64,000 nucleotides of DNA, taken from assembly GCA_000493965.1 (NCBI GenBank), contig AWNV01000007.1, positions 23,351 to 87,350 of the forward strand, given 5' to 3'. A program made the translations under genes and the position numbers. This DNA is from Candidatus Aminicenans sakinawicola JGI OTU-1. Lineage in GTDB: Bacteria > Acidobacteriota > Aminicenantia > Aminicenantales > Aminicenantaceae. This document shows positions 1 to 19,802 of the stretch, piece after piece. Position 1 is the stretch's first letter, and the number at the start of each line of letters is the position of its first letter. Under the pieces are notes generated by a model, which saw nothing but the letters and a program-made list of their open reading frames with translations, had not been told where the DNA came from and ran no database searches.

Positions 1-113
1 CTAAGTGTGGTTCTCCCGAATTAAAAAAAGGGATGTATACAGATTACGATAGAGATGAAAACTATTATATAGTTGAATGCACAAAATGTAATTATATGGA
101 TTGGACGCAATAA
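1..113 (+). CDS. 3' end of a gene running in from outside the window; C-terminal Zn ribbon (KCGS...ECTKCNY)
   Basis: Frame starting at nt 3 reads KCGSPELKKGMYTDYDRDENYYIVECTKCNYMDWTQ* (TAA 111-113). It stops 1 nt before the next ATG. Not in the ORF track. Confidence 0.6.
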   Translation, partial: KCGSPELKKGMYTDYDRDENYYIVECTKCNYMDWTQ

Positions 114-114
114 A

Positions 115-1185
115 ATGTCTTTATCGTCAATTAAAGAAATTGAACAATTTAAAACACTTGTTGAGCAACTCGATGCATGCTGCGAATTTATCGAGCAGGA
201 TACGATAACAAAAAATAGAATAAGCACTATTTTATTAGATAACATTTCAGAGATATTGCTTCAGCGGTGTTGTCAGCCATTATTTGAGTGGGATAATTTT
301 ACTAAATGGATTATCCCGCAGAAATTTACTGTGTCTAAAAAACTAAAGGTTTCAAAATATTTCGATGAAAAGATTAGAGTCATTGAATCCAAGAATGACA
401 TCCCACAGAAGATAAGCCAGATTCTTAGTATAGGTCATAAATACCGAAATGACATATATCATAGAGATAAACATAATGAAAATACAATAGGAGTTATAAC
501 TAAGATCTTTTTTATTTCGGTGTGTGACTTTTTTGCAAAAGTGGGTGGTGGTTTTGCAGGGCTTACAATAGGTGGATACAATAAGTCTGTTGATTGGCTG
601 GAAAATTATGGGCTTAATAAATCACTTATCAATTTTTCCGAGGCCTCATATATTATCGCTAATATGTTCAAAAGTAGGGTTGATTTAAAAATATCAGTCG
701 CGGCAGAAATTTTAACTAAAGATATTCTTAAGCGGATTGACGATATAAAACAGTTAGTAAATAAAGAATTGCCATGGAAGTCCCCTGAGCAAATTAATCC
801 AACAATTAAATGGTTTGAGTTTAAAGAAAAATACCCAGAGATAGAAGATCAATTGTCCGAGAATTATAGAAAATACTGTTATAAAATAAGTAAAGGGGAG
901 GCCATAGATATCACACCTGAAAAATTCAAGGAATTAGAAGAAAAATTTCGTCAAGGATATTATAAAAAGGTTGAAGAATATCAGCCAAAAATAAACTATT
1001 CGTTAATAGCAAGTGTTGCAGAAAACGCGCAGGCATTAAAGGAAAATAAAAAAATTAGTAGCTTGATTTGTAAATATTATAACTTAGATAAAGTGCTATC
1101 TGAGTTAGAGAAGTATTTAGATTTAGCTGAAGCAGAATGGGATAGAGTAGTTCAACAAGAAATAGATATTCGTCGAGGAAAGTAG
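115..1185 (+). CDS. Putative HEPN-domain protein with helical C-terminal extension
   Basis: ORF 73..1185; ATG115 is preferred because it follows the upstream stop. N-terminal helix ILLDNISE and Rx4H motif (HKY-RNDIYH) match the HEPN RNase signature. Confidence 0.65.
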   Translation: MSLSSIKEIEQFKTLVEQLDACCEFIEQDTITKNRISTILLDNISEILLQRCCQPLFEWDNFTKWIIPQKFTVSKKLKVSKYFDEKIRVIESKNDIPQKISQILSIGHKYRNDIYHRDKHNENTIGVITKIFFISVCDFFAKVGGGFAGLTIGGYNKSVDWLENYGLNKSLINFSEASYIIANMFKSRVDLKISVAAEILTKDILKRIDDIKQLVNKELPWKSPEQINPTIKWFEFKEKYPEIEDQLSENYRKYCYKISKGEAIDITPEKFKELEEKFRQGYYKKVEEYQPKINYSLIASVAENAQALKENKKISSLICKYYNLDKVLSELEKYLDLAEAEWDRVVQQEIDIRRGK

Positions 1186-3351: not shown

Positions 3352-4415
3352 ATAGAATTTCTATAAGAGAAATAAAAGACAGAAATGATGATTATGAAAA
3401 TACTATCAATGCATTATTGTGCTTCATATCTCTAACGACTTGGGAAGGCAATCAGAGAAGACCAAATAGTTATTATTCATTTGGAAGGAGAATGACAACA
3501 AGTGCTTCAAATGTCATCTCTCCAAATCAAGATATAACACCAGATACTGTAATTCAGATTTTAGATGATTTGGGATTTATTGTTGAGGCAAAGATTAGCT
3601 TGCCTGCTGATGAAAATCACTGGGGTGGAATTTTAAACCAAATAAAAAAATATGATGATGATTTAACAGGATGGTGGAAACAAGATGAGCATATAAACAA
3701 TCATAACGTGATTTTATTACTGCATATGTCTAGGAGTGTAAGCTTTAAAAAATATAGGGATGTCCTAATAGAAAATGGCGATTACGAGTCTAGTGATAGT
3801 GTGTGGGGAATCGAATTTGTTTTATCTAGACAAAGGCAAGAATATATTCTTTTCCGAACTTGTTGGGAAGCTAACAATATGTATAACTGTAATCTCTCTA
3901 ACAGACTAGAAATTGGCGTAAATCTCCCTATTGAAGCGGTTAAATTTTCCTACGGGAATATAAAATTCTACGACAGCAAACCTGAACCTGAATATTTATT
4001 GAGTATCATTTGGCAGGATATTTTAACTCCCTGGAAAAGAGAGGTTGAGTTTAATAAGCAATTGAACTGTTATCTAATAGAAACTGATATACAGACTATA
4101 ACTAATGAATTACAGAAGAGTTATGGGTCGATTGCTCTTCAGAGAAGTTGTAATATAGACAGAAATGATGAAAGGGAGATTGAGTATCCAAAAGGTTCTT
4201 GGGTAAAAGAAGCTCTTGAGATTTTAATTAAACTAGGTTTTGCCTCAAAAGATAGTGAAGATAATTACACGATATTTTTCCGTGAGTTGAGATTACGTAG
4301 AGATAAAGATTTGGTAGATTATTTTTCTAAACATCGAGCAAAAAAAGAAGAAGAGGAAGAGGATTTACAAAGAAGGTTATTTGAAGATGATAGAGTGGAT
4401 ACTGAAGCAACCTAG
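3348..4415 (+). CDS. Putative PD-(D/E)xK (restriction-endonuclease-fold) nuclease
   Basis: ITPDTV...FIVEAK...QIKKY gives the PD..ExK..Q..Y arrangement; acidic C-terminal tail. Confidence 0.6.
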   Translation: MNRISIREIKDRNDDYENTINALLCFISLTTWEGNQRRPNSYYSFGRRMTTSASNVISPNQDITPDTVIQILDDLGFIVEAKISLPADENHWGGILNQIKKYDDDLTGWWKQDEHINNHNVILLLHMSRSVSFKKYRDVLIENGDYESSDSVWGIEFVLSRQRQEYILFRTCWEANNMYNCNLSNRLEIGVNLPIEAVKFSYGNIKFYDSKPEPEYLLSIIWQDILTPWKREVEFNKQLNCYLIETDIQTITNELQKSYGSIALQRSCNIDRNDEREIEYPKGSWVKEALEILIKLGFASKDSEDNYTIFFRELRLRRDKDLVDYFSKHRAKKEEEEEDLQRRLFEDDRVDTEAT

Positions 4416-4481
4416 AATCTTGAAAGGACAAAAAAGGCATTTTTCATAATATTTATCAAAGAGCATTTTTGAAGTTCTGCG

Positions 4482-4544
4482 GGGGCGAGTGGAAGCCAAG
4501 CCTGCTTGACTTCCCGGGATTGATATGACAGCCTAGCTGGAAAA
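4482..4544 (+). repeat. Structured intergenic element, copy A
   Basis: GGGGCGAGT-GGAAGCCAAG(4491-4500)/CTTGACTTCC(4505-4514) stem, then a CAGC-CTA-GCTG hairpin; related to copies at 5342, 6112 and 6832. Confidence 0.75.
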
Positions 4545-4703
4545 CTATCAGTATAAACTCTGAGAAAAAGTAGTATTCAGCATATAATGTCTGCTTTCCT
4601 CTATGTGATCACAAGGATAGGAAAAAGAAGAAATAATATTTATTGATCTCTGTCGGAGAAAGTGATAACAATTGTAAATGAGTTTATAAAAAGGGAGGGG
4701 TAA

Positions 4704-5321
4704 ATGGAATTAAAAAAATTTTTAATTTTTTGTATTTTAATCTTTTCTATTATTTTTATTTCAGAAGCCAATGCTGAAAAGAAAACTGTATTAGAGGAGG
4801 ATGGAACTGATTGGATAGCTGGATCTGATTCATGGAAGATAGGTTATGTTGGTGGATTTATTGCTGGAGCAATGATTGTACGGGATGAATTTTATATTTT
4901 TGAGAATAAGCTTAAAAGCGAAAGAGATAAAGCAATTTATAATAAAAGTCTAAATGAAATAGCTCTTGTTAAAATTACTGTTGGTCAAATTATGGATGGA
5001 ATAAGTGGTTTTTACAATGATTTTAGCAATCGTAGAATTAAAATAGTTGATGCTATTTATGTCGTAAAAATGCAGATTGAAGGGGATGACCCCGAATTAA
5101 TTGATTCACAAATCAGATATTTAAAAATGCAACCAATAGATATAGAAATAAAAAAGAAGTGTTGGAAAAAATTTGTATTTACCGAAAAAAAGGGAAACAA
5201 GGTTACATATAAAGAGATAAAAAATGGGGATTTTAGCTTTGAAGATTTACTAAGAGCGGGGATATTTATAGACGCAAGTAATAATTTACACATTTTATTT
5301 TGCTATGGGATATATAAATAA
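4704..5321 (+). CDS. Secreted hypothetical protein (weak Rap1a/immunity-like pattern)
   Basis: Signal peptide ending ANA|EKK; strong RBS AAGGGAGG; GYVGGF..G and TVGQI motifs. Confidence 0.75.
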   Translation: MELKKFLIFCILIFSIIFISEANAEKKTVLEEDGTDWIAGSDSWKIGYVGGFIAGAMIVRDEFYIFENKLKSERDKAIYNKSLNEIALVKITVGQIMDGISGFYNDFSNRRIKIVDAIYVVKMQIEGDDPELIDSQIRYLKMQPIDIEIKKKCWKKFVFTEKKGNKVTYKEIKNGDFSFEDLLRAGIFIDASNNLHILFCYGIYK

Positions 5322-5341
5322 ACCCTAAAAAGATATGTGAA

Positions 5342-5398
5342 TATTTGAGGCAAGTGGAAGCCAGAGACCCTTAAGCCCTGGCTTCTCTTGTTTAAATA
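5342..5398 (+). repeat. Structured intergenic element, copy B
   Basis: GAGGCAAGTGGAAGCCAG...CTGGCTTC; 8-bp perfect stem (5357-5364/5378-5385) extended by G-T pairs to about 20 bp. Confidence 0.75.
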
Positions 5399-5431
5399 GA
5401 ATCAAACAAGATATAAAAAAGGAGGATTTAA

Positions 5432-6100
5432 ATGGCACAATGTATTTGGTGCGGGGGAAAAAGTTTATTTCTTTCTGTTGATAAAAATAAGCTTTGTCGG
5501 AATTGCCAAGGAAAAATTTATTTTGATTTGCAACAGAGAATAAGAATAATTCAAGACAGCCAGAAGCTAATCGAAAAGTCAAAAAACTTTAATACAAGGA
5601 TTGGTCGAATTGATACTCTTTTGGAACATGTCCAGGCATTGAAAAAGTATGAGGATAAAAATATAACAACATTAGAACTACCGCCATCAGAGGTTGAAAA
5701 AGCTTATCTTAGAATTAGAAGTGAGCTTATTTTTGAGGACATAAATGAAGAGATTGATAAGATAATGAACAAAGCCAAACTTGGATTGACTCCCAGAACA
5801 AAAATGAATGAAGCAAATAAAGCTCTTGTTAAAATCAATGAAAGAAGGAGAGAAATTCAAGAAGAAGACAAAATCACTGTGATAGAGAAAAAAGAGAAAG
5901 AAATAAAAACATTTATTCACAAGACCCAGTTAAATGAATATATTGAAGAGGCAAAAAAAGCAGAATTTAAGGGTCAGAAATCTAAGGCATTGGACAAATA
6001 TCAAGAAGCTCTTTATTTTCTTCAGAATGATGAAATTGATGATTCTCTTCAGAAAGAAAATATTGATGAATTAAAAGCCAAAATATCAGAACTTACTTAA
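5432..6100 (+). CDS. Hypothetical protein: N-terminal CxxC/CxxC Zn finger plus helical (TPR-like) body
   Basis: CIWC...CRNC; RBS AAGGAGG. Confidence 0.75.
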   Translation: MAQCIWCGGKSLFLSVDKNKLCRNCQGKIYFDLQQRIRIIQDSQKLIEKSKNFNTRIGRIDTLLEHVQALKKYEDKNITTLELPPSEVEKAYLRIRSELIFEDINEEIDKIMNKAKLGLTPRTKMNEANKALVKINERRREIQEEDKITVIEKKEKEIKTFIHKTQLNEYIEEAKKAEFKGQKSKALDKYQEALYFLQNDEIDDSLQKENIDELKAKISELT

Positions 6101-6111
6101 ATAAGAAGGAA

Positions 6112-6211
6112 AATTGAGGCGACTGGAAGTCAAAGACCTCAAGACCTCGGCTTCCCGATTCTGAAAAACAACAGCATAGCTGAAAATTGCGCCTCATTTA
6201 GAGAGACGGAT
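6112..6211 (+). repeat. Structured intergenic element, copy C (most complete)
   Basis: Outer stem TGAGGCG(6115-6121)/CGCCTCA(6190-6196); inner stem GGAAGTC/GGCTTCC; CAGC-ATA-GCTG hairpin; tail GCGCCTCATTTAGAGAGACGGAT. Confidence 0.8.
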
Positions 6212-6286
6212 TGTATTAACGGTTTTTCTCACAGAGACAAAGTGAAAGAGGTAAAATGAAAAGACAAGATTTAGAAGGGAGGAAAA

Positions 6287-6793
6287 ATGAAAAGAGCAAT
6301 CTCAATATTAGTTGGTTTTTTTCTATTGTTCACAATTTACGCAAGTCTTGGGTTTACGCAAGATAAAAGTATAGAAACATTTGTGGTTTATTATTTCGGT
6401 GCAACAAGTTGTGGATTTTGTAATGTACCAGAAAATATTGAAAAAATTAAAAAGATTAAAACAGAGTTCTCCAAAAAATATAAAGATTCTAATATTAAAT
6501 ATGTTATGGTTTGTATGGATAGAAATATCGAAGAAGGATTAAGATTTATAAAGAAATATGGGTATTGGGACGAAATTTCAATTGGCAAGTTTTATAATAA
6601 TGAATTAGCATTAAATTATTTAAACAAAACAGAAATTCCTGGTGTCCCTCATGTAATTGTTTATAAAGATCTACTTATAAAAAAAGAGAAAGTGTCTGTC
6701 CCCATTATAAAGGAAAGAAAAATATTAGTTGACTTAGTTGGTGGCACACAGATAGGGAATTGGATAAATGACATTTATCCTTTAAAGAACTAA
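6287..6793 (+). CDS. Exported thioredoxin-fold protein
   Basis: Signal peptide; SCGFC (CxxC) after a beta strand; cis-Pro-like GVPH; RBS AAGGGAGG. Confidence 0.75.
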   Translation: MKRAISILVGFFLLFTIYASLGFTQDKSIETFVVYYFGATSCGFCNVPENIEKIKKIKTEFSKKYKDSNIKYVMVCMDRNIEEGLRFIKKYGYWDEISIGKFYNNELALNYLNKTEIPGVPHVIVYKDLLIKKEKVSVPIIKERKILVDLVGGTQIGNWINDIYPLKN

Positions 6794-6831
6794 TAAAAAC
6801 CGTTGGAAAATAGAGTTGTTCTAAAGGCCTT

Positions 6832-6894
6832 CTGGCTTCCCTAAGACTGAAAAAGACAGAAGACTGAATTAGCGCCTCATTTAGAGAGATGGAT
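6832..6894 (+). repeat. Structured intergenic element, copy D (3' half only)
   Basis: CTGGCTTCC...GCGCCTCATTTAGAGAGATGGAT; 18 bp (6872-6889) identical to 6189-6206. Confidence 0.8.
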
Positions 6895-6933
6895 GAGGGA
6901 AAATATCGATAATATAATATTTTTAGAATAAAA

Positions 6934-7146
6934 ATGTCTAGAAGTAGTCATAGTAATAAGAAATTACCAAAGCCAGAATATTTTTCTTGGTTGATTGAGT
7001 ATAAAATAGAAAATTTAAAAGAAATGGTGTCGCCATTAGAATTGGATTTGAATGGAGTAAGAAACAGCATAAAAACCGAGATAGAAAAGGCTAGTCCTGA
7101 ACAGTATGATTCAGAACATGACTATCTTGAGGCTATTTTTCCGTAA
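6934..7146 (+). pseudogene. Short or truncated ORF (70 aa) at the island's right edge
   Basis: AT-rich ORF ending 4 nt before rlmB; likely a 5' fragment (inference). Confidence 0.4.
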
Positions 7147-7150
7147 GACA

Positions 7151-7888
7151 ATGTCTAGAGAAATAATCAGTCGTCTCAACCCCATATTGGAGGCTTTGAA
7201 ATCTTCTCCATGCCGTGTGAATAAAATATTCGTTCAAAACGGGACGGGAAAAGGTAAGATTCAAGAAATCATTAATTTCGCCAGAGATAGGAAAATTCCT
7301 CTTTTTTTTGTACCGAGAAAAAAGCTCGAGGTGCTGGATAAAAATCATCAGGGGGCAGTTGCTTTATTATCTCCAAAAGAGTTTTCCTCCTTGGGATCCA
7401 TCTTAGAAGGTTCGAGGCTTCCTTTTCTTGTTTTACTGGATGGAGTCGAAGACCCTCAGAATTTAGGTGCAATTATCCGGACTGCTGAAGGAGCAGGAGT
7501 GGACGGAATCATACTGCCCGAAAGGAGGTCTGCAGGGTTAACACATGTTGTTTCTTCTGTTTCAGCAGGAGCGCTTGAACATATCAAAGTTGCAAAGGTC
7601 ACTAATTTAGCGCGTGCTATAGATGATTTGAAAAAAAAGGGGATTTGGATAGTTGGGGCAGAAAGTGGAAGCAGGCAGTACTGGTATGAATTTGATTATA
7701 CAGTTCCTCTCGGGCTGGTTTTGGGCTCGGAAGGCAGAGGTCTTCGGCCCATTATCAGAAGAAGTTGTGACAAAATTCTCTCAATACCGCTTCTTGGGAA
7801 ATTGACTTCTCTTAATGTTGCTGCTGCGGCGTCTGTTTTCCTTTATGAAGCTGCACGCCAGAGGATGGGACTATCCCAGGATTCATAG
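7151..7888 (+). CDS. rlmB: 23S rRNA (guanosine-2'-O)-methyltransferase RlmB (TrmH/SpoU family)
   Basis: HQGAVA, LDGVEDPQNLGAIIRTA, GSEGRG and SLNVAAA motifs; start placed at ATG7151. Confidence 0.92.
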   Translation: MSREIISRLNPILEALKSSPCRVNKIFVQNGTGKGKIQEIINFARDRKIPLFFVPRKKLEVLDKNHQGAVALLSPKEFSSLGSILEGSRLPFLVLLDGVEDPQNLGAIIRTAEGAGVDGIILPERRSAGLTHVVSSVSAGALEHIKVAKVTNLARAIDDLKKKGIWIVGAESGSRQYWYEFDYTVPLGLVLGSEGRGLRPIIRRSCDKILSIPLLGKLTSLNVAAAASVFLYEAARQRMGLSQDS

Positions 7889-7906
7889 CACCTTACTCGT
7901 GAAGAT

Positions 7907-8920
7907 TTGCTTTATATCTTGCAATTGCAAAAGTATTATGATACGAGTATCGGGATTTTTATTGAGGAGGTGAGCGCCATTCCTTTCATATGGAAACCTT
8001 TAAACAAAAGGCTGGAGACAGGCATAGGTAATGACAGCCGTATATTTGTCATTTGCAATCCCCATTCGAACCGGGACCGGCACCGGAGGTTGATTCCACG
8101 CGAGATTAAAATCCTTAAGAAAGAAGGGCTCGACTTCATATATGCGATTACAGATAACCCGATGGATGAATATATCATCGCTAAGGATGCGGTCGAAGAT
8201 GGATTTAAAACAATTGTTGCTTCTGGCGGTGACAGCACCATAAGTAATATTGCTGATGCAATATTGACAACTAATCCGAAGATTAACTTTGGGATAATCC
8301 CTAACGGAACAGGCAATGATTATGCTACAGGGAACAGCATCCCTCGGTCTTTGCATGAAGCAGTAAAAACCATTAAACAGGGCAGGGTTGAGAAACGGGA
8401 TGTTATAAAAATCGGAAATCGCTATGCTGTGAGCCTCGTGGGATTCGGCTTTGATATTACAATGAGCGAGGTGCACCTTAAAAATAAAATACTAAAGGGG
8501 TCGGCGCTTTATTTTTATGCCATTATTGTTGCGATTTTTCGGCATAAAGGGTTTGAGATAACAGTAGAAATGGATGAAGGAAAGGAATTTAAAGGGAAAG
8601 CAATGATGCTTAATCTTGGTAATAATAAAATCTCGGGCGGAGGTTATATGACTTGTCCGGAGGCTGATATGAATGATGGTAAAATGGATGTAATGTTTAT
8701 TGAGGATTGTCCGCCCATGACCCGCCTGAAGCTGTTACAAATGGTTAAAAGCGCCACTCACCTTCGCCACCCGCTTGTCCATTATCAACAAACACGGAAA
8801 GTAGTTGTTAAAAGTGAGCTCCCGATAGCCTTTCATACAGAAGGGGAAATGTTTTATACAGAGCAAAACAGCATCGGTGCAGAAGTAATTCCAGATAAAC
8901 TCAACCTTATAGTTAGATAA
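7907..8920 (+). CDS. Diacylglycerol/lipid kinase family protein (YegS/BmrU-like)
   Basis: ICNPHS, SGGDST, IPNGTGNDYA and GFGFD motifs; true start uncertain, probably downstream of 7907. Confidence 0.85.
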   Translation: MLYILQLQKYYDTSIGIFIEEVSAIPFIWKPLNKRLETGIGNDSRIFVICNPHSNRDRHRRLIPREIKILKKEGLDFIYAITDNPMDEYIIAKDAVEDGFKTIVASGGDSTISNIADAILTTNPKINFGIIPNGTGNDYATGNSIPRSLHEAVKTIKQGRVEKRDVIKIGNRYAVSLVGFGFDITMSEVHLKNKILKGSALYFYAIIVAIFRHKGFEITVEMDEGKEFKGKAMMLNLGNNKISGGGYMTCPEADMNDGKMDVMFIEDCPPMTRLKLLQMVKSATHLRHPLVHYQQTRKVVVKSELPIAFHTEGEMFYTEQNSIGAEVIPDKLNLIVR

Positions 8921-9699: not shown

Positions 9700-9940
9700 A
9701 GCAGTATTTTAGCCGAACAGGATGTATCCTGCAAATTTGATATGGATTTTGCAAATGATTTCAGTTATTCTTTATGTATCTGTTGCATGATTTACAGGCC
9801 ATAATTTGAAGGAGCAGTAGTCATAGAAAGCATCTGGTGGCAAAATTTGAGGAACGATGAGTAAAATGAGGCCAAAAAAACCTAGAGAAGAGGGATGGAA
9901 ATTTTATTCAGCTTCTGTGTATAACAGTCTGGAAAGAAGG

Positions 9941-17291: not shown

Positions 17292-19802
17292 CTACGTTGT
17301 CTTCAGGCGCCTTGTTTCAGTTATGAACGTCCCGATCAAGGCAGCAAATGTGAATAAAAAGACTCTCCATAGAGCTGTGACTGCAGTATTGCCCAGAAGG
17401 GCTGTAAGCAGCTCACCTTCTCCTGTGAATACAATCAACAGCACTGTGCTTACTACGGCATGAAAGAGACCTGTTAGGGCTCCGCTGATTGCCCCCATTG
17501 TCATTCGTTTTGAGAAGGCAGCACCTCCTGCCCATACAGAAGTCCCAGCAGCCGTGAAAATAGGGAACCAGAGAGCAATCCACCAGATATTGCCGAATTT
17601 GGGTAGATGACCTGTACATTGAAGGTATACTACTTCGGTTAAAGCTAGAAATACAGTTCCTGTAAGCACACAGAGAGGTAAGTGCCAGGTTCTAGGTTTT
17701 AGGCCGGATCGAAGCTTGCTGCGTTGGCGGATGCGCCGGCCTATAGTCAGGGGATAATTGTAGAATAAGTCAAAGAAGGTATGTTCCAGAAGAGCCCCTC
17801 TCTCCCCAAAGACAGGCACGATATGTGCGGCTCCGGTTGCCCAATGTCCAGCCATGAATCGGGCGAGGTCTGGATAGCGGTATGCCATCTGTATCGGAAA
17901 AGCAAGATAACCGATATATTTGAGGAAACTTAAATAAAATGCGATGTTGTAATCTTTGAAATTGCGTTCGTGTAAAACAAGAAAAGACACATAAAAACCT
18001 CGAACAAGCGAGCCGGGCGATATCGGAATAACTTGAAAAAGACCCAGAATAATGCCTGCGTGTACAGAAGCCGCCTGCCACGAGAGTTCCGGGTGCAGAT
18101 TTACATAAGTAAAGGCAACGATAATTGAGACTATTTGTGTTATAGGTACTGTGCAGATATGAACAGCTAGGCTTTTAAGGTATTTCTGGATAAAAGGCTC
18201 CTTTATCTGGGAATTGATTCTTGCTGCCTCTTCAGTGCTCAGGATTCCGTTGTTATGTCCTGTAGAGACCAATTCACGCAGCCATCGTTCTCGGGCATGG
18301 GCTTTGAAATAGAGCCGTAAAGGTCTTGCAAATATGTAATCAAGTGACTGTAATGCAAAGCGGCGGTCTGAAAAAAATCGGTGCATCTTTGCAGGTAATA
18401 TTGAAAGCGGCAGGTGTCCAAGAAATCTCGCAGGATGTCCGGCCAGCTTTTTTGCCCGTTTGGCATCGACACGTCCTGTCCTGTGCCAGCGGATTAGAAT
18501 CTCAGCAATGCGGCTTCTTCCGGCGCGCCGGAAATAGTCGAGGCTGGTAAACAAGCGTGCTAAGTGATGTCTGTAATTTTCTTTCCCCCACAGCCTGCGC
18601 ACAAAATATCCAAGAATTGGAATAAGACCGAGGAAGTAGAAGATCAGGGTTAGAAACTTATTATGAACTAATCTGTTTAAGGTTTTTTTATCGATTATGT
18701 TCCGGATCTTCCAGCTTTTTATACTGCTGTCCATGATGGATGCCCACAGTTTCCTGCTGTAGATCAGTTTAAAATGATGATGTGTGATATCGGGTAGTGA
18801 GCTGCGGTAAGACTTGTCTGCCTCTTTAAGCTCCTCCATGGCATCTTGCATTCCTGTAAAAGTTTCTGGATTGTTATTCACAAAATTCTGCAGTTTGTCT
18901 ATGCTTCCGCGGTCAAACTGAACTAAACTGCCCCGGCCGATGCCTTTGAAGATGAGTTTAAAGTCAGCAGGGCACATAGGAAGAAAAGGAAGAATGGCAA
19001 GGCCGGCACGGAAATCCACTGCCACTAGCCCAGCTTCAGGAGCAGGATCGCTCTCAGTTTGCTTAAGTACATTAGGCTGGCTTTTGAGTGTCCACCATTC
19101 ATACTGGCGGGCCAGTTCTACAGCGCCCATTTCATGTAACAAATCAACAAGCTGGGCCATAAAAATCCGTTTTGAGCGGTACTCTGGGGAACCAGCCCCT
19201 TCCCCGGAATCTCCTGCTTTCCATTTCCGCCTGGCATCCAGGTTGTCGTCTACCTCGAGATGCCACACGCGGCCGTCGATCCACTCGCTGATTTCTCCAC
19301 AGCTCCCGAGAACAGGGTCAATGAAGGTTGCCAGAATATTGACTACAACCTTTTCTGAACCAAAGTATGTTTTCGCTCCCTGCCGGATAAGTTTCTGCCA
19401 AAGAGCACCTGCACGGGCAGCGTCAGGATTGACCTGGAGGGAAAATGGGCCCTGAAAGCCAAGGGCATAAATCACGTTTCGGTATAATTTTGAGAACCCA
19501 GTCGGAGGAATGAGAATTTTCATAGCATAGGTATGGCCCGGATGAATGCCTTCAAGCTGGCCGTCAGCAGATTCAATACTCAGGATTTTTGCCTTGTAAA
19601 CCTGGCCTGCATAGCCCCCGCCTATAAATTTTTCTACTTCTAATTTTAAATGTCCTGTGTTTGCGGGAACGATTCCTTTGACTTCATAAGAGAACTGTGT
19701 CCCTGGTTCATATCGCTGGATGCGCATGGGGCGCAGGATTTTCTGTTCCTGGAAAGTCTCTGTTAATTCCCTTATAGTCTGAATCGAATATTCTATTTCC
19801 AT
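17292..19802 (-). CDS. Large hypothetical protein: N-terminal protein-kinase-like domain plus multi-TM C-terminus
   Basis: IGGGYAGQVYKA (Gly loop), YAMKIL (beta3 Lys), QPNVL and VAVDF; several hydrophobic segments in the C-terminal half. Confidence 0.7.
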   Translation of the reverse strand: MEIEYSIQTIRELTETFQEQKILRPMRIQRYEPGTQFSYEVKGIVPANTGHLKLEVEKFIGGGYAGQVYKAKILSIESADGQLEGIHPGHTYAMKILIPPTGFSKLYRNVIYALGFQGPFSLQVNPDAARAGALWQKLIRQGAKTYFGSEKVVVNILATFIDPVLGSCGEISEWIDGRVWHLEVDDNLDARRKWKAGDSGEGAGSPEYRSKRIFMAQLVDLLHEMGAVELARQYEWWTLKSQPNVLKQTESDPAPEAGLVAVDFRAGLAILPFLPMCPADFKLIFKGIGRGSLVQFDRGSIDKLQNFVNNNPETFTGMQDAMEELKEADKSYRSSLPDITHHHFKLIYSRKLWASIMDSSIKSWKIRNIIDKKTLNRLVHNKFLTLIFYFLGLIPILGYFVRRLWGKENYRHHLARLFTSLDYFRRAGRSRIAEILIRWHRTGRVDAKRAKKLAGHPARFLGHLPLSILPAKMHRFFSDRRFALQSLDYIFARPLRLYFKAHARERWLRELVSTGHNNGILSTEEAARINSQIKEPFIQKYLKSLAVHICTVPITQIVSIIVAFTYVNLHPELSWQAASVHAGIILGLFQVIPISPGSLVRGFYVSFLVLHERNFKDYNIAFYLSFLKYIGYLAFPIQMAYRYPDLARFMAGHWATGAAHIVPVFGERGALLEHTFFDLFYNYPLTIGRRIRQRSKLRSGLKPRTWHLPLCVLTGTVFLALTEVVYLQCTGHLPKFGNIWWIALWFPIFTAAGTSVWAGGAAFSKRMTMGAISGALTGLFHAVVSTVLLIVFTGEGELLTALLGNTAVTALWRVFLFTFAALIGTFITETRRLKTT

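Follow-up and report, generated by a model that had tools for sequence, protein, structure and literature searches.

A structured repeat bounding small gene cassettes in variable arrays of Candidatus Aminicenantes

The DNA considered here, referred to as the window, is a stretch of 64,000 nucleotides (nt) from Candidatus Aminicenans sakinawicola JGI OTU-1 (assembly GCA_000493965.1, contig AWNV01000007.1, positions 23,351 to 87,350 of the forward strand), and all coordinates without a locus name are positions within it. Near its start, in the region read in detail (3600–8000), lies an array of small co-oriented genes separated by copies of a structured repeat, the subject of this report. The same repeat-bounded unit is found in different arrays, and the same chromosomal site holds different units in near-identical genomes. 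Judged from these comparisons, such cassettes may be exchanged at a lineage-specific boundary element by an enzyme that is not linked to the arrays, a reading which is preferred tentatively and with the doubt slightly heavier than the confidence.

The array and its repeats

Along the + strand, the genes of the region are a pair encoding proteins of 372 and 355 amino acids (aa), which ends at 4415, followed by genes of 205, 222 and 168 aa, a doubtful frame of 70 aa and rlmB. A preliminary description of this DNA had reported four related elements here. They were recovered by repeat search and MAFFT alignment of the window sequence and are real, as seen in motif counts above chance, in the alignment itself and in nhmmer matches to a profile of the family. 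The start motif GGCRASTGGAAGYCA (15 nt) occurs three times in the window, always in the array region (0.4 expected), the tail GCGCCTCATTTAGAGAGAYGGAT (23 nt) twice (0 expected), and the hairpin pattern GGAAGNNA-N6-22-GGCTTC four times, three of these in the array region (0.17 expected). All four profile matches in the window belong to one array at 4482–6894, rather than being scattered irrespective of such genes. The features are as follows.

4484–4544, + strand: repeat A, a degenerate copy (nhmmer E=0.0017 against the family profile)
4704–5321, + strand: cassette gene 1, 205 aa, with a signal-peptide-like N-terminus
5345–5399, + strand: repeat B, the 5′ module only, TTGAGGCAAGTGGAAGCCAG-loop-CTGGCTTC (nhmmer E=1.9e-15)
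5432–6100, + strand: cassette gene 2, 222 aa, with an N-terminal CxxC...CxxC zinc ribbon
6114–6211, + strand: repeat C, a full-length element (nhmmer E=3.9e-13)
6287–6793, + strand: cassette gene 3, 168 aa, secreted, thioredoxin-like
6821–6894, + strand: repeat D, a decayed copy (nhmmer match to the family profile)
6895–7126, + strand: terminal cassette segment, with a doubtful 70-aa open reading frame (ORF) at 6934–7146
7127–7133, + strand: TTGAGGC, the first 7 nt of the repeat, at the distal end of the array and 17 nt ahead of the rlmB start codon (7151)
7151–7888, + strand: rlmB, a SpoU-type 23S rRNA methyltransferase (Pfam), the conserved flank of an insertion hot spot

Repeat A, which lies 67 nt beyond the stop codon of the 355-aa gene, begins its core with GGGGGCGAG where TTGAGGCGAG is usual, and has the arms GGAAGCCAAG / CTTGACTTCC and the small hairpin CAGCCTAGCTG. 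Repeat B begins 23 nt past a stop codon. Repeat C carries the outer inverted boxes TGAGGCG (6115–6121) and CGCCTCA (6190–6196) at the fixed spacing of the family, the arms GGAAGTCA (6125–6132) and GGCTTCC (6149–6155), the small hairpin CAGCATAGCTG (6172–6182) and the tail TTTAGAGAGACGGAT; over 137 nt it shares 85% identity with the last repeat in the array of a relative of the same species (locus L172). The 5′ arm of repeat D is gone, with a loop remnant, the 3′ arm GGCTTCC (6834–6840), the 3′ box CGCCTCA (6873–6879) and the tail retained. The TTGAGGC that marks the distal end had not been mentioned in the preliminary description, which did hold the ribosome-binding regions behind the repeats to be alike; the motif in question differs by an indel between its two sites and is absent from all other loci, and is thus no feature of the family. 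Single-sequence folding energy is unremarkable for A, C and D (z -0.2 to -2.2), DNA folding z-scores of the window repeats are weak on both strands, and Rfam gives no match over the repeats at gathering score or E<=10, the only feature of the window to reach gathering score being a tRNA-Leu.

Cassette gene 1 has no family match in Pfam or PADLOC, and its exact protein was found in the context of this window only. Cassette gene 3 matches Pfam Thioredoxin_8 weakly, below the cut-off (E=1.1e-4). Named homologues of the rlmB product are RlmB of Candidatus Aminicenantes.

Anatomy, distribution and cargo of the repeat family

The repeat family is specific to the Candidatus Aminicenantes lineage. A pattern scan with one genome per species gave 45 stretches, about 22 of them clear family members, in about 15 genomes; 10 of these clear matches lie on contigs labelled Aminicenantes and the rest on contigs of metagenome-assembled genomes (MAGs) that are labelled otherwise. 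Labels on repeat-bearing contigs include Saccharibacteria, WOR-3, Thermoplasmata and Eubacteriales (L026, which is CAYUSS010000025.1, L044, L032 and several ‘Eubacteriales’ MAG contigs), and since L026 is 98% identical to Aminicenantes single-cell assemblies, at least its label is a binning or naming error. The same kind of scan in metagenomes returned at least 118 stretches, mostly from deep sediments. A profile hidden Markov model built on the 57-nt core identified 232 copies in 135 loci of Aminicenantes genomes and sediment metagenomes; 73 of these loci hold two to five copies, nearly always on the same strand. The repeat was not found in plasmids, phages or viral contigs.

The core consensus of about 57 nt reads TTGAGGCGAGT GGAAGCCA AAGACCCTAAAGCCC TGGCTTCC CTGGATTGAAAAAGA, in which AAGACCCTAAAGCCC is a conserved 15-nt loop that occurs in two main variants (GA or TC at positions 22–23). 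The 8-bp arms on either side of the loop (GGAAGCCA/TGGCTTCC), 15 nt apart, are 94–99% invariant across the family. The stem had been described as kept through G-T pairs, an argument of no weight for the family: deviations in the arms are transitions, 31 of them G.T-type on the top strand and 35 on the bottom strand (A.C-type), with no compensatory double change. With compensation lacking and the two types about equal, the arms behave as conserved sequence and are neutral as to the folded strand. Between a quarter and a third of the copies extend to about 90 nt, the added part consisting of a small hairpin of variable sequence and a box, CGCCTCA, complementary to the TGAGGCG at the start. Among 187 copies, an octamer complementary to positions 2–9 is found downstream at >=7/8 in 16% and at >=6/8 in 39%, with shuffled controls reaching 14% at the latter threshold; the 7/8 boxes are almost all placed between +70 and +79, and one copy shows a compensatory change (GAGCC paired with GGCTC). 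The hairpin between core and 3′ box varies in sequence (CAGC/GCTG, ACGC/GCGT, CGTG/CACG, CGGC/GCCG, TCGG/CCGA, CAGCG/CGCTG), with at least four Watson-Crick pairs in 33/64 copies against 15/64 shuffles and a sense-strand G.T:A.C ratio of its wobbles of 10:1 against 7:8 in shuffles. Furthermore, conservation continues past the 3′ box in many copies (TAnGATAGACG..GAGGGGA..AATTCTCA), toward the ribosome-binding site of the next gene.

Several known structures were considered for the element and rejected. The junction reads (U/A)AAA(A/U)GA, not the CUGANGA of the hammerhead, and no Rfam match supports this or another three-way-junction ribozyme. ARAGORN finds no tRNA at the array, and the small hairpin stands 5–8 nt away from the outer stem, unlike tRNA-like punctuation. 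Scans for a sigma-70 promoter or an intrinsic terminator inside the element stay at background level, and sigma-54-type spacing, inspected by eye, does not fit. A variant hairpin, GGAAGCCAGGAT-loop-ATCCTGGCTTCC, with a perfect 12-bp stem and other flanks, is present at L014:6748–6789 and L049:7614–7656, conserved together with both its flanks in the two genomes; it may be a relative or an ancestor of the inner hairpin of the repeat.

Gene context was counted for 196 strong copies. The ORF upstream is co-oriented with the repeat in 154/163 cases and that downstream in 146/154 (about 95%). From the stop codon to the start of the repeat the median distance is 26 nt, the commonest arrangement (15 cases) being one in which the repeat’s own TGA serves as the stop, and from the core to the next start codon it is about 96 nt. 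The elements had been described as sitting just before a gene; the adjoining co-oriented genes are there, but each element is much nearer to the upstream stop than to the next start and is better called a boundary element. The array of mostly single-gene units bounded by a structured repeat, as the preliminary description had it, is confirmed across the family: among 92 inter-repeat intervals, whose median length is 980 nt, 56 (61%) hold one ORF of >=50 aa, and 141/147 of the ORFs within intervals are co-oriented. One such unit is a mini-cassette of about 280–300 nt between two repeats at L018:6917–7250, also in L020, L082 and L146 at about 77–80% identity and with a different gene after it in each; it encodes a hydrophobic peptide of about 59 aa, with the stop codon supplied by the TGA of the repeat that follows.

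About a quarter of the interval ORFs have a signal- or membrane-like N-terminus. Cargo recognised by Pfam or PADLOC is a minority, most ORFs being without a match. The recognised cargo across the family includes DRT reverse transcriptases (UG20), OLD, Mrr, AbiU2, Abi_C, Schlafen/AlbA, TIR, AAA_15/21, a DNA methylase, pentapeptide proteins, outer-membrane barrels, propellers and M4 peptidase. As to the suggestion that the array feeds a defence island, the putative link depends within the window on one upstream TIR gene, the sole recognisable defence gene there, although the cargo of the family does include known defence genes. This TIR-domain gene (199 aa, truncated by the window start) has matches among TIR defence models, Thoeris ThsB-like ones included, and overlaps by one base a 356-aa gene of an unplaced family (window 1–1185; L001:4083–5754); the pair, which lies at the proximal end of the inserted region, probably makes up a defence system of two genes. 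Between them and the pair of 372- and 355-aa genes lies about 1 kb without a convincing ORF (1186–2213), possibly the remains of a gene. About 450 nt of it (1490–1935) are richer in GC and were rejected as a structured RNA, the best Rfam match being a vertebrate long non-coding RNA at E=0.12 and folding being no better than in shuffles on either strand (z +0.6 / +0.8).

Cassette exchange and the search for an enzyme

One cassette seen in two settings is that of the 222-aa gene. Several single-cell assemblies (GCA_000405725.1 and others) encode the identical protein in the setting known from the window, and the gene is also found in a different array, on a tRNA-integrated island (L002/L008), among other neighbour genes. 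Gene and leader are 98.2% identical over 797 nt (window 5338–6134 and L002 9907–10703). At the left junction, where repeat B corresponds to repeat R3 of L002, the loops differ and the sequences are identical from the 3′ arm on; at the right junction, identity drops past the stop codon and is gone after GGAAGyCAAA. In addition, a 304-aa gene of L002 recurs in L091, its left identity beginning at the 3′ arm, with the first mismatches on the right at positions 6–8 of the next repeat and identity gone just past the 3′ arm. Eleven further junction pairs show one-sided homology ending within the repeat. Excised cassette circles were not seen.

The complementary case, one chromosomal site with different contents, is provided by close relatives. 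The window and L172 are 97.5–98.2% identical over more than 9 kb in megablast, starting exactly at window position 7127; upstream of this point the two share repeat copies only, and L172 has five repeats and other genes there. A three-way alignment has three different sequences, from the window, L172 and L026, joining the conserved chromosome at TTGAGGC (7127–7133). In L026, which elsewhere matches the window at 98% identity, the divergence is confined to the stretch lying between the 3′ arm of repeat D and TTGAGGC. In place of the terminal segment 6895–7126 there is another, shorter sequence in L026 and unrelated sequence in L172. Gene order in relatives is hence not invariant; invariance is what had been named as speaking against the proposed system. 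In the complete genome of a distant relative (CP070825.1), glnS and rlmB adjoin, 70 nt apart, which identifies the roughly 7 kb between them in the window as an insertion hot spot. Repeats are as similar between arrays (76.6% identity) as within one array (76.3%), implying that they arrive from diverse sources, which fits cassettes bringing their own sites. On the same ground, local duplication of the repeat on insertion (of the CRISPR kind or as target duplication) and gene conversion within arrays were rejected.

Two further differences between genomes were noted beside these. In two assemblies (L180:5584–7761 and L181:4508–6685) only 128 aa of the 168-aa gene remain, and glnS-gltX is attached there in inverted orientation; the junction reflects either a genuine inversion across the island or a chimera made when single-cell genomes were amplified. 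The window and L172 differ at a second place (window 9773–9931 and L172:12647–14125), where about 1.3 kb with genes for an ECF sigma factor, a zf-HC2 anti-sigma factor and YbjQ is present in L172 and in the distant genome L175 and absent from the window; this place has no copy of the repeat.

As regards the exact breakpoints, upstream homology mostly ends at the very start (5′ edge) of the repeat. Downstream homology begins in the loop or 3′ arm in the two best pairs and just past the 3′ arm in the pair of repeat D and L026, while in more diverged pairs it begins only near the 3′ box (about +85 in some). This pattern fits a fixed crossover near the inner hairpin combined with faster drift of non-coding sequence, two preferred points, or homology-driven exchange, three accounts that are inseparable because the arms are near-invariant and only a handful of pairs reach >=97% identity.

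The search for an enzyme covered 1.16 Mb of loci around about 230 repeat copies. Clustering of the 698 ORFs in this set yielded one recombinase family, tyrosine integrases of 225–517 aa as called, in 6 loci and at 0.6–6 kb from the arrays; three have an N-terminal excisionase-type helix-turn-helix (two confirmed by scan). An approximate IntI1 probe gave weak matches only, all skipping residues of about 185–257, the IntI-specific segment. An IS608 TnpA probe for IS200-type transposases, likewise approximate and of low sensitivity, found no match, and no gene resembling a transposase of the repetitive extragenic palindromic (REP) elements (REP-associated tyrosine transposase, RAYT) turned up with it. 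In L002 an island of 15 kb, with an integrase (18133–19629) at attR and the cassette array as cargo, lies between two copies of a 69-nt direct repeat (4556–4624 and 19649–19717, 94% identical) that corresponds to a tRNA gene’s 3′ end. The flanking tRNA 3′-end repeats indicate that this integrase serves the island, and for L002 the nearby integrase is ruled out as the cassette recombinase. A second repeat set in L002 (4612–4817 and 6191–6398) suggests two elements integrated in tandem.

Explanations and significance

In the proposed mechanism, cassettes would be exchanged through recombination at the repeat, and its near-invariant inverted arms would most likely form the binding site of a putative recombinase, placed elsewhere in the genome because none is linked to the arrays. 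The element would be co-transcribed with the genes and is probably also an intercistronic structure in the mRNA, a role that would account for its strict orientation and its position after stop codons. Several results weigh against exchange by such an enzyme. The window array is stable in its own population, with the same order in more than 15 contigs. Breakpoints are scattered over the repeat and define no single crossover, and faster drift of non-coding positions could explain part of their pattern. A lone TTGAGGC at array ends is not general (4/48 against 1/48). A linked recombinase, which the preliminary description had proposed to look for, was not found: the 64-kb window holds no tyrosine recombinase or other linked recombinase, five of the six integrases in the 1.16 Mb were scanned and are generic (25–85 bits against TIGR02249, cut-off 265), and no serine recombinase was detected in these loci with Hin and gamma-delta resolvase probes, which are approximate and insensitive to distant relatives. 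Formal covariation on a plain MAFFT alignment is weak (0.057 against 0.048, a value reached by 13/500 shuffles) and RNAalifold yields the invariant hairpin only, for which reasons a three-helix fold of the full-length form is suggestive and not shown. Lastly, the data are explained about equally well by a dedicated capture system and by homology-driven exchange at a conserved intercistronic element. The cassette-capture or recombination system first suggested is supported in part: the turnover of cassette-like units is demonstrated, and an enzyme acting at a fixed crossover point is a candidate mechanism. A stronger form of the proposal, in which a dedicated, unlinked recombinase would act on a site of about 45–90 nt (arms and conserved loop) to excise and insert single-gene cassettes independently of integrons, so that each genome would come to hold several small arrays in which defence and surface genes are kept, is considered rather unlikely. 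The pdif modules of Acinetobacter plasmids (XerC/XerD) offer a partial parallel, being small gene modules between short sites, in varied contexts and with an unlinked host recombinase. However, pdif sites are 28 bp long (11-6-11), dif-like and of alternating orientation, whereas the arms here are 8 bp, 15 nt apart, in direct chromosomal copies, and by inspection the family consensus has no similarity to dif.

A serious rival, doubtful but well within reach, is that the repeat is a REP-like intercistronic RNA or DNA element under selection in transcripts (as an mRNA 3′-end stabiliser, a terminator without U-tract, a processing site or a translational insulator), and that genes are reshuffled as a by-product of homologous recombination between dispersed copies without any dedicated recombinase. 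Copies strictly co-oriented with genes and placed directly after stop codons would be expected from it, as would conservation that in many copies reaches on toward the following gene’s Shine-Dalgarno region and a small hairpin that covaries with a sense-strand G.U bias; the unfound linked recombinase, the distributed breakpoints and the stability of the array agree with it too. REP elements, including bacterial interspersed mosaic elements (BIME) and the REPIN-RAYT system (REP doublets forming hairpins), are similarly extragenic, just past stop codons, hairpin-forming and co-transcribed, their copies can mediate rearrangements, and they are able to affect mRNA stability, termination or translation. 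Yet REPs are 20–40 nt long, number hundreds per genome and often form inverted pairs, whereas the present elements are 57–90 nt with a conserved loop and junction, in direct copies clustered in accessory arrays (4 in the 64-kb window, all in one array), with none after the core genes of the window. A T-run after the hairpin is absent, with terminator and promoter scans at background, and the loop and junctions are conserved as sequence beyond what a hairpin alone would require. Moreover, the motif on which the three haplotypes converge has 7 nt, too few for homologous recombination, and the swapped units are small (0.3–1 kb) and bounded by repeats on both sides. The intergenic mosaic, Correia and minimal mobile elements of Neisseria are comparable in being lineage-specific intergenic repeats with inverted ends that are co-transcribed and tied to sites with different genes between conserved flanks among strains. 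Those repeats are abundant genome-wide without strict orientation and replacement is attributed to homologous recombination in the conserved flanking genes; here, unlike in Neisseria, the repeat itself delimits each unit.

Layout and cargo type resemble a sedentary integron array without a local integrase (CALIN), and the repeat is not a member of the integron family. That it is nonetheless a divergent true integron array, the repeats being an Aminicenantes-type attC and the integron integrase being encoded elsewhere in the genome, is very improbable. As in integrons, arrays consist of co-oriented, mostly single-gene and mostly unannotated units, a 60–130-nt imperfectly palindromic site stands directly past each ORF and differs among the sites of one array, the same cassette recurs in different arrays with content varying among close relatives, and anti-phage genes and secreted proteins abound in the cargo; storage of defence systems in integron cassettes is now known, also for sedentary integrons (bioRxiv 10.1101/2024.07.02.601686). 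The full-length form, which makes an imperfect hairpin spanning about 85 nt and has a 7-bp outer stem, is also within the size range of attC. Against this, the attC cores RYYYAAC...GTTRRRY, which the preliminary description had not seen either, number 0 on both strands of window 4400–7200 (0.47 in shuffles) and 1 around 215 family copies (-30 to +170, R''/R' cores 50–140 nt apart), and the consensus has no conserved AAC/GTT triplets. No scanned integrase reaches the integron-integrase cut-off, and the IntI1-probe matches lack the IntI-specific segment. The best-conserved part here is the inner hairpin with its loop and not the outer R/L boxes, the outer stem is present in a minority of copies (16–39%), and homology breaks at the 5′ edge or around the inner hairpin, away from the 3′ end of the site where the integron crossover is fixed (G|TT of R'). 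In integrons a bottom-strand hairpin with extrahelical bases is used; here the arms are symmetric (31 against 35), and the only strand-informative signal, the 10:1 bias of the small hairpin, favours the sense strand. Aminicenantes genomes also differ from integron carriers in holding several short arrays each, some in tRNA-integrated islands. Similarly improbable is a miniature inverted-repeat transposable element (MITE) of about 85–90 bp with the terminal inverted repeats TGAGGCG/CGCCTCA, inserting in accessory intergenic DNA, with arrays arising from target preference and later recombination between copies. The terminal boxes at fixed spacing in a subset of copies, the many decayed or truncated copies and the equal divergence of copies within and between arrays would suit a MITE. 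The 95% co-orientation with genes is unexpected for a near-symmetrical element, though, most copies lack the 3′ end, conservation runs past the 3′ box, and swaps are bounded by parts of the element and not by whole elements; target-site duplication is not evident in the alignments, nor was a transposase found in the loci.

To our knowledge, among systems in which single promoterless genes are stockpiled behind a structured recombination site, only integrons are well understood, and genome searches for such arrays are based on the integron site and integrase. Literature on Aminicenantes with integron or attC gave no description of the repeat, which is weak evidence of novelty, as many papers lie outside searchable text. 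If dedicated capture were true, it would be a second, independently evolved answer to the problem that integrons solve. A whole uncultivated lineage has integron-like architecture and cargo (DRT, OLD, Abi, TIR and restriction genes) with a different site, and since the site differs and an integron integrase is lacking, these arrays would probably escape standard integron finders. Should a dedicated enzyme exist, it would represent a new recombination system and a new handle with which to mine defence genes from sediment metagenomes; should there be none, the family would show how a conserved intercistronic element by itself can make an operon into a platform for shuffling genes. In both cases, the repeat profile serves as a practical marker of variable regions in Aminicenantes genomes.

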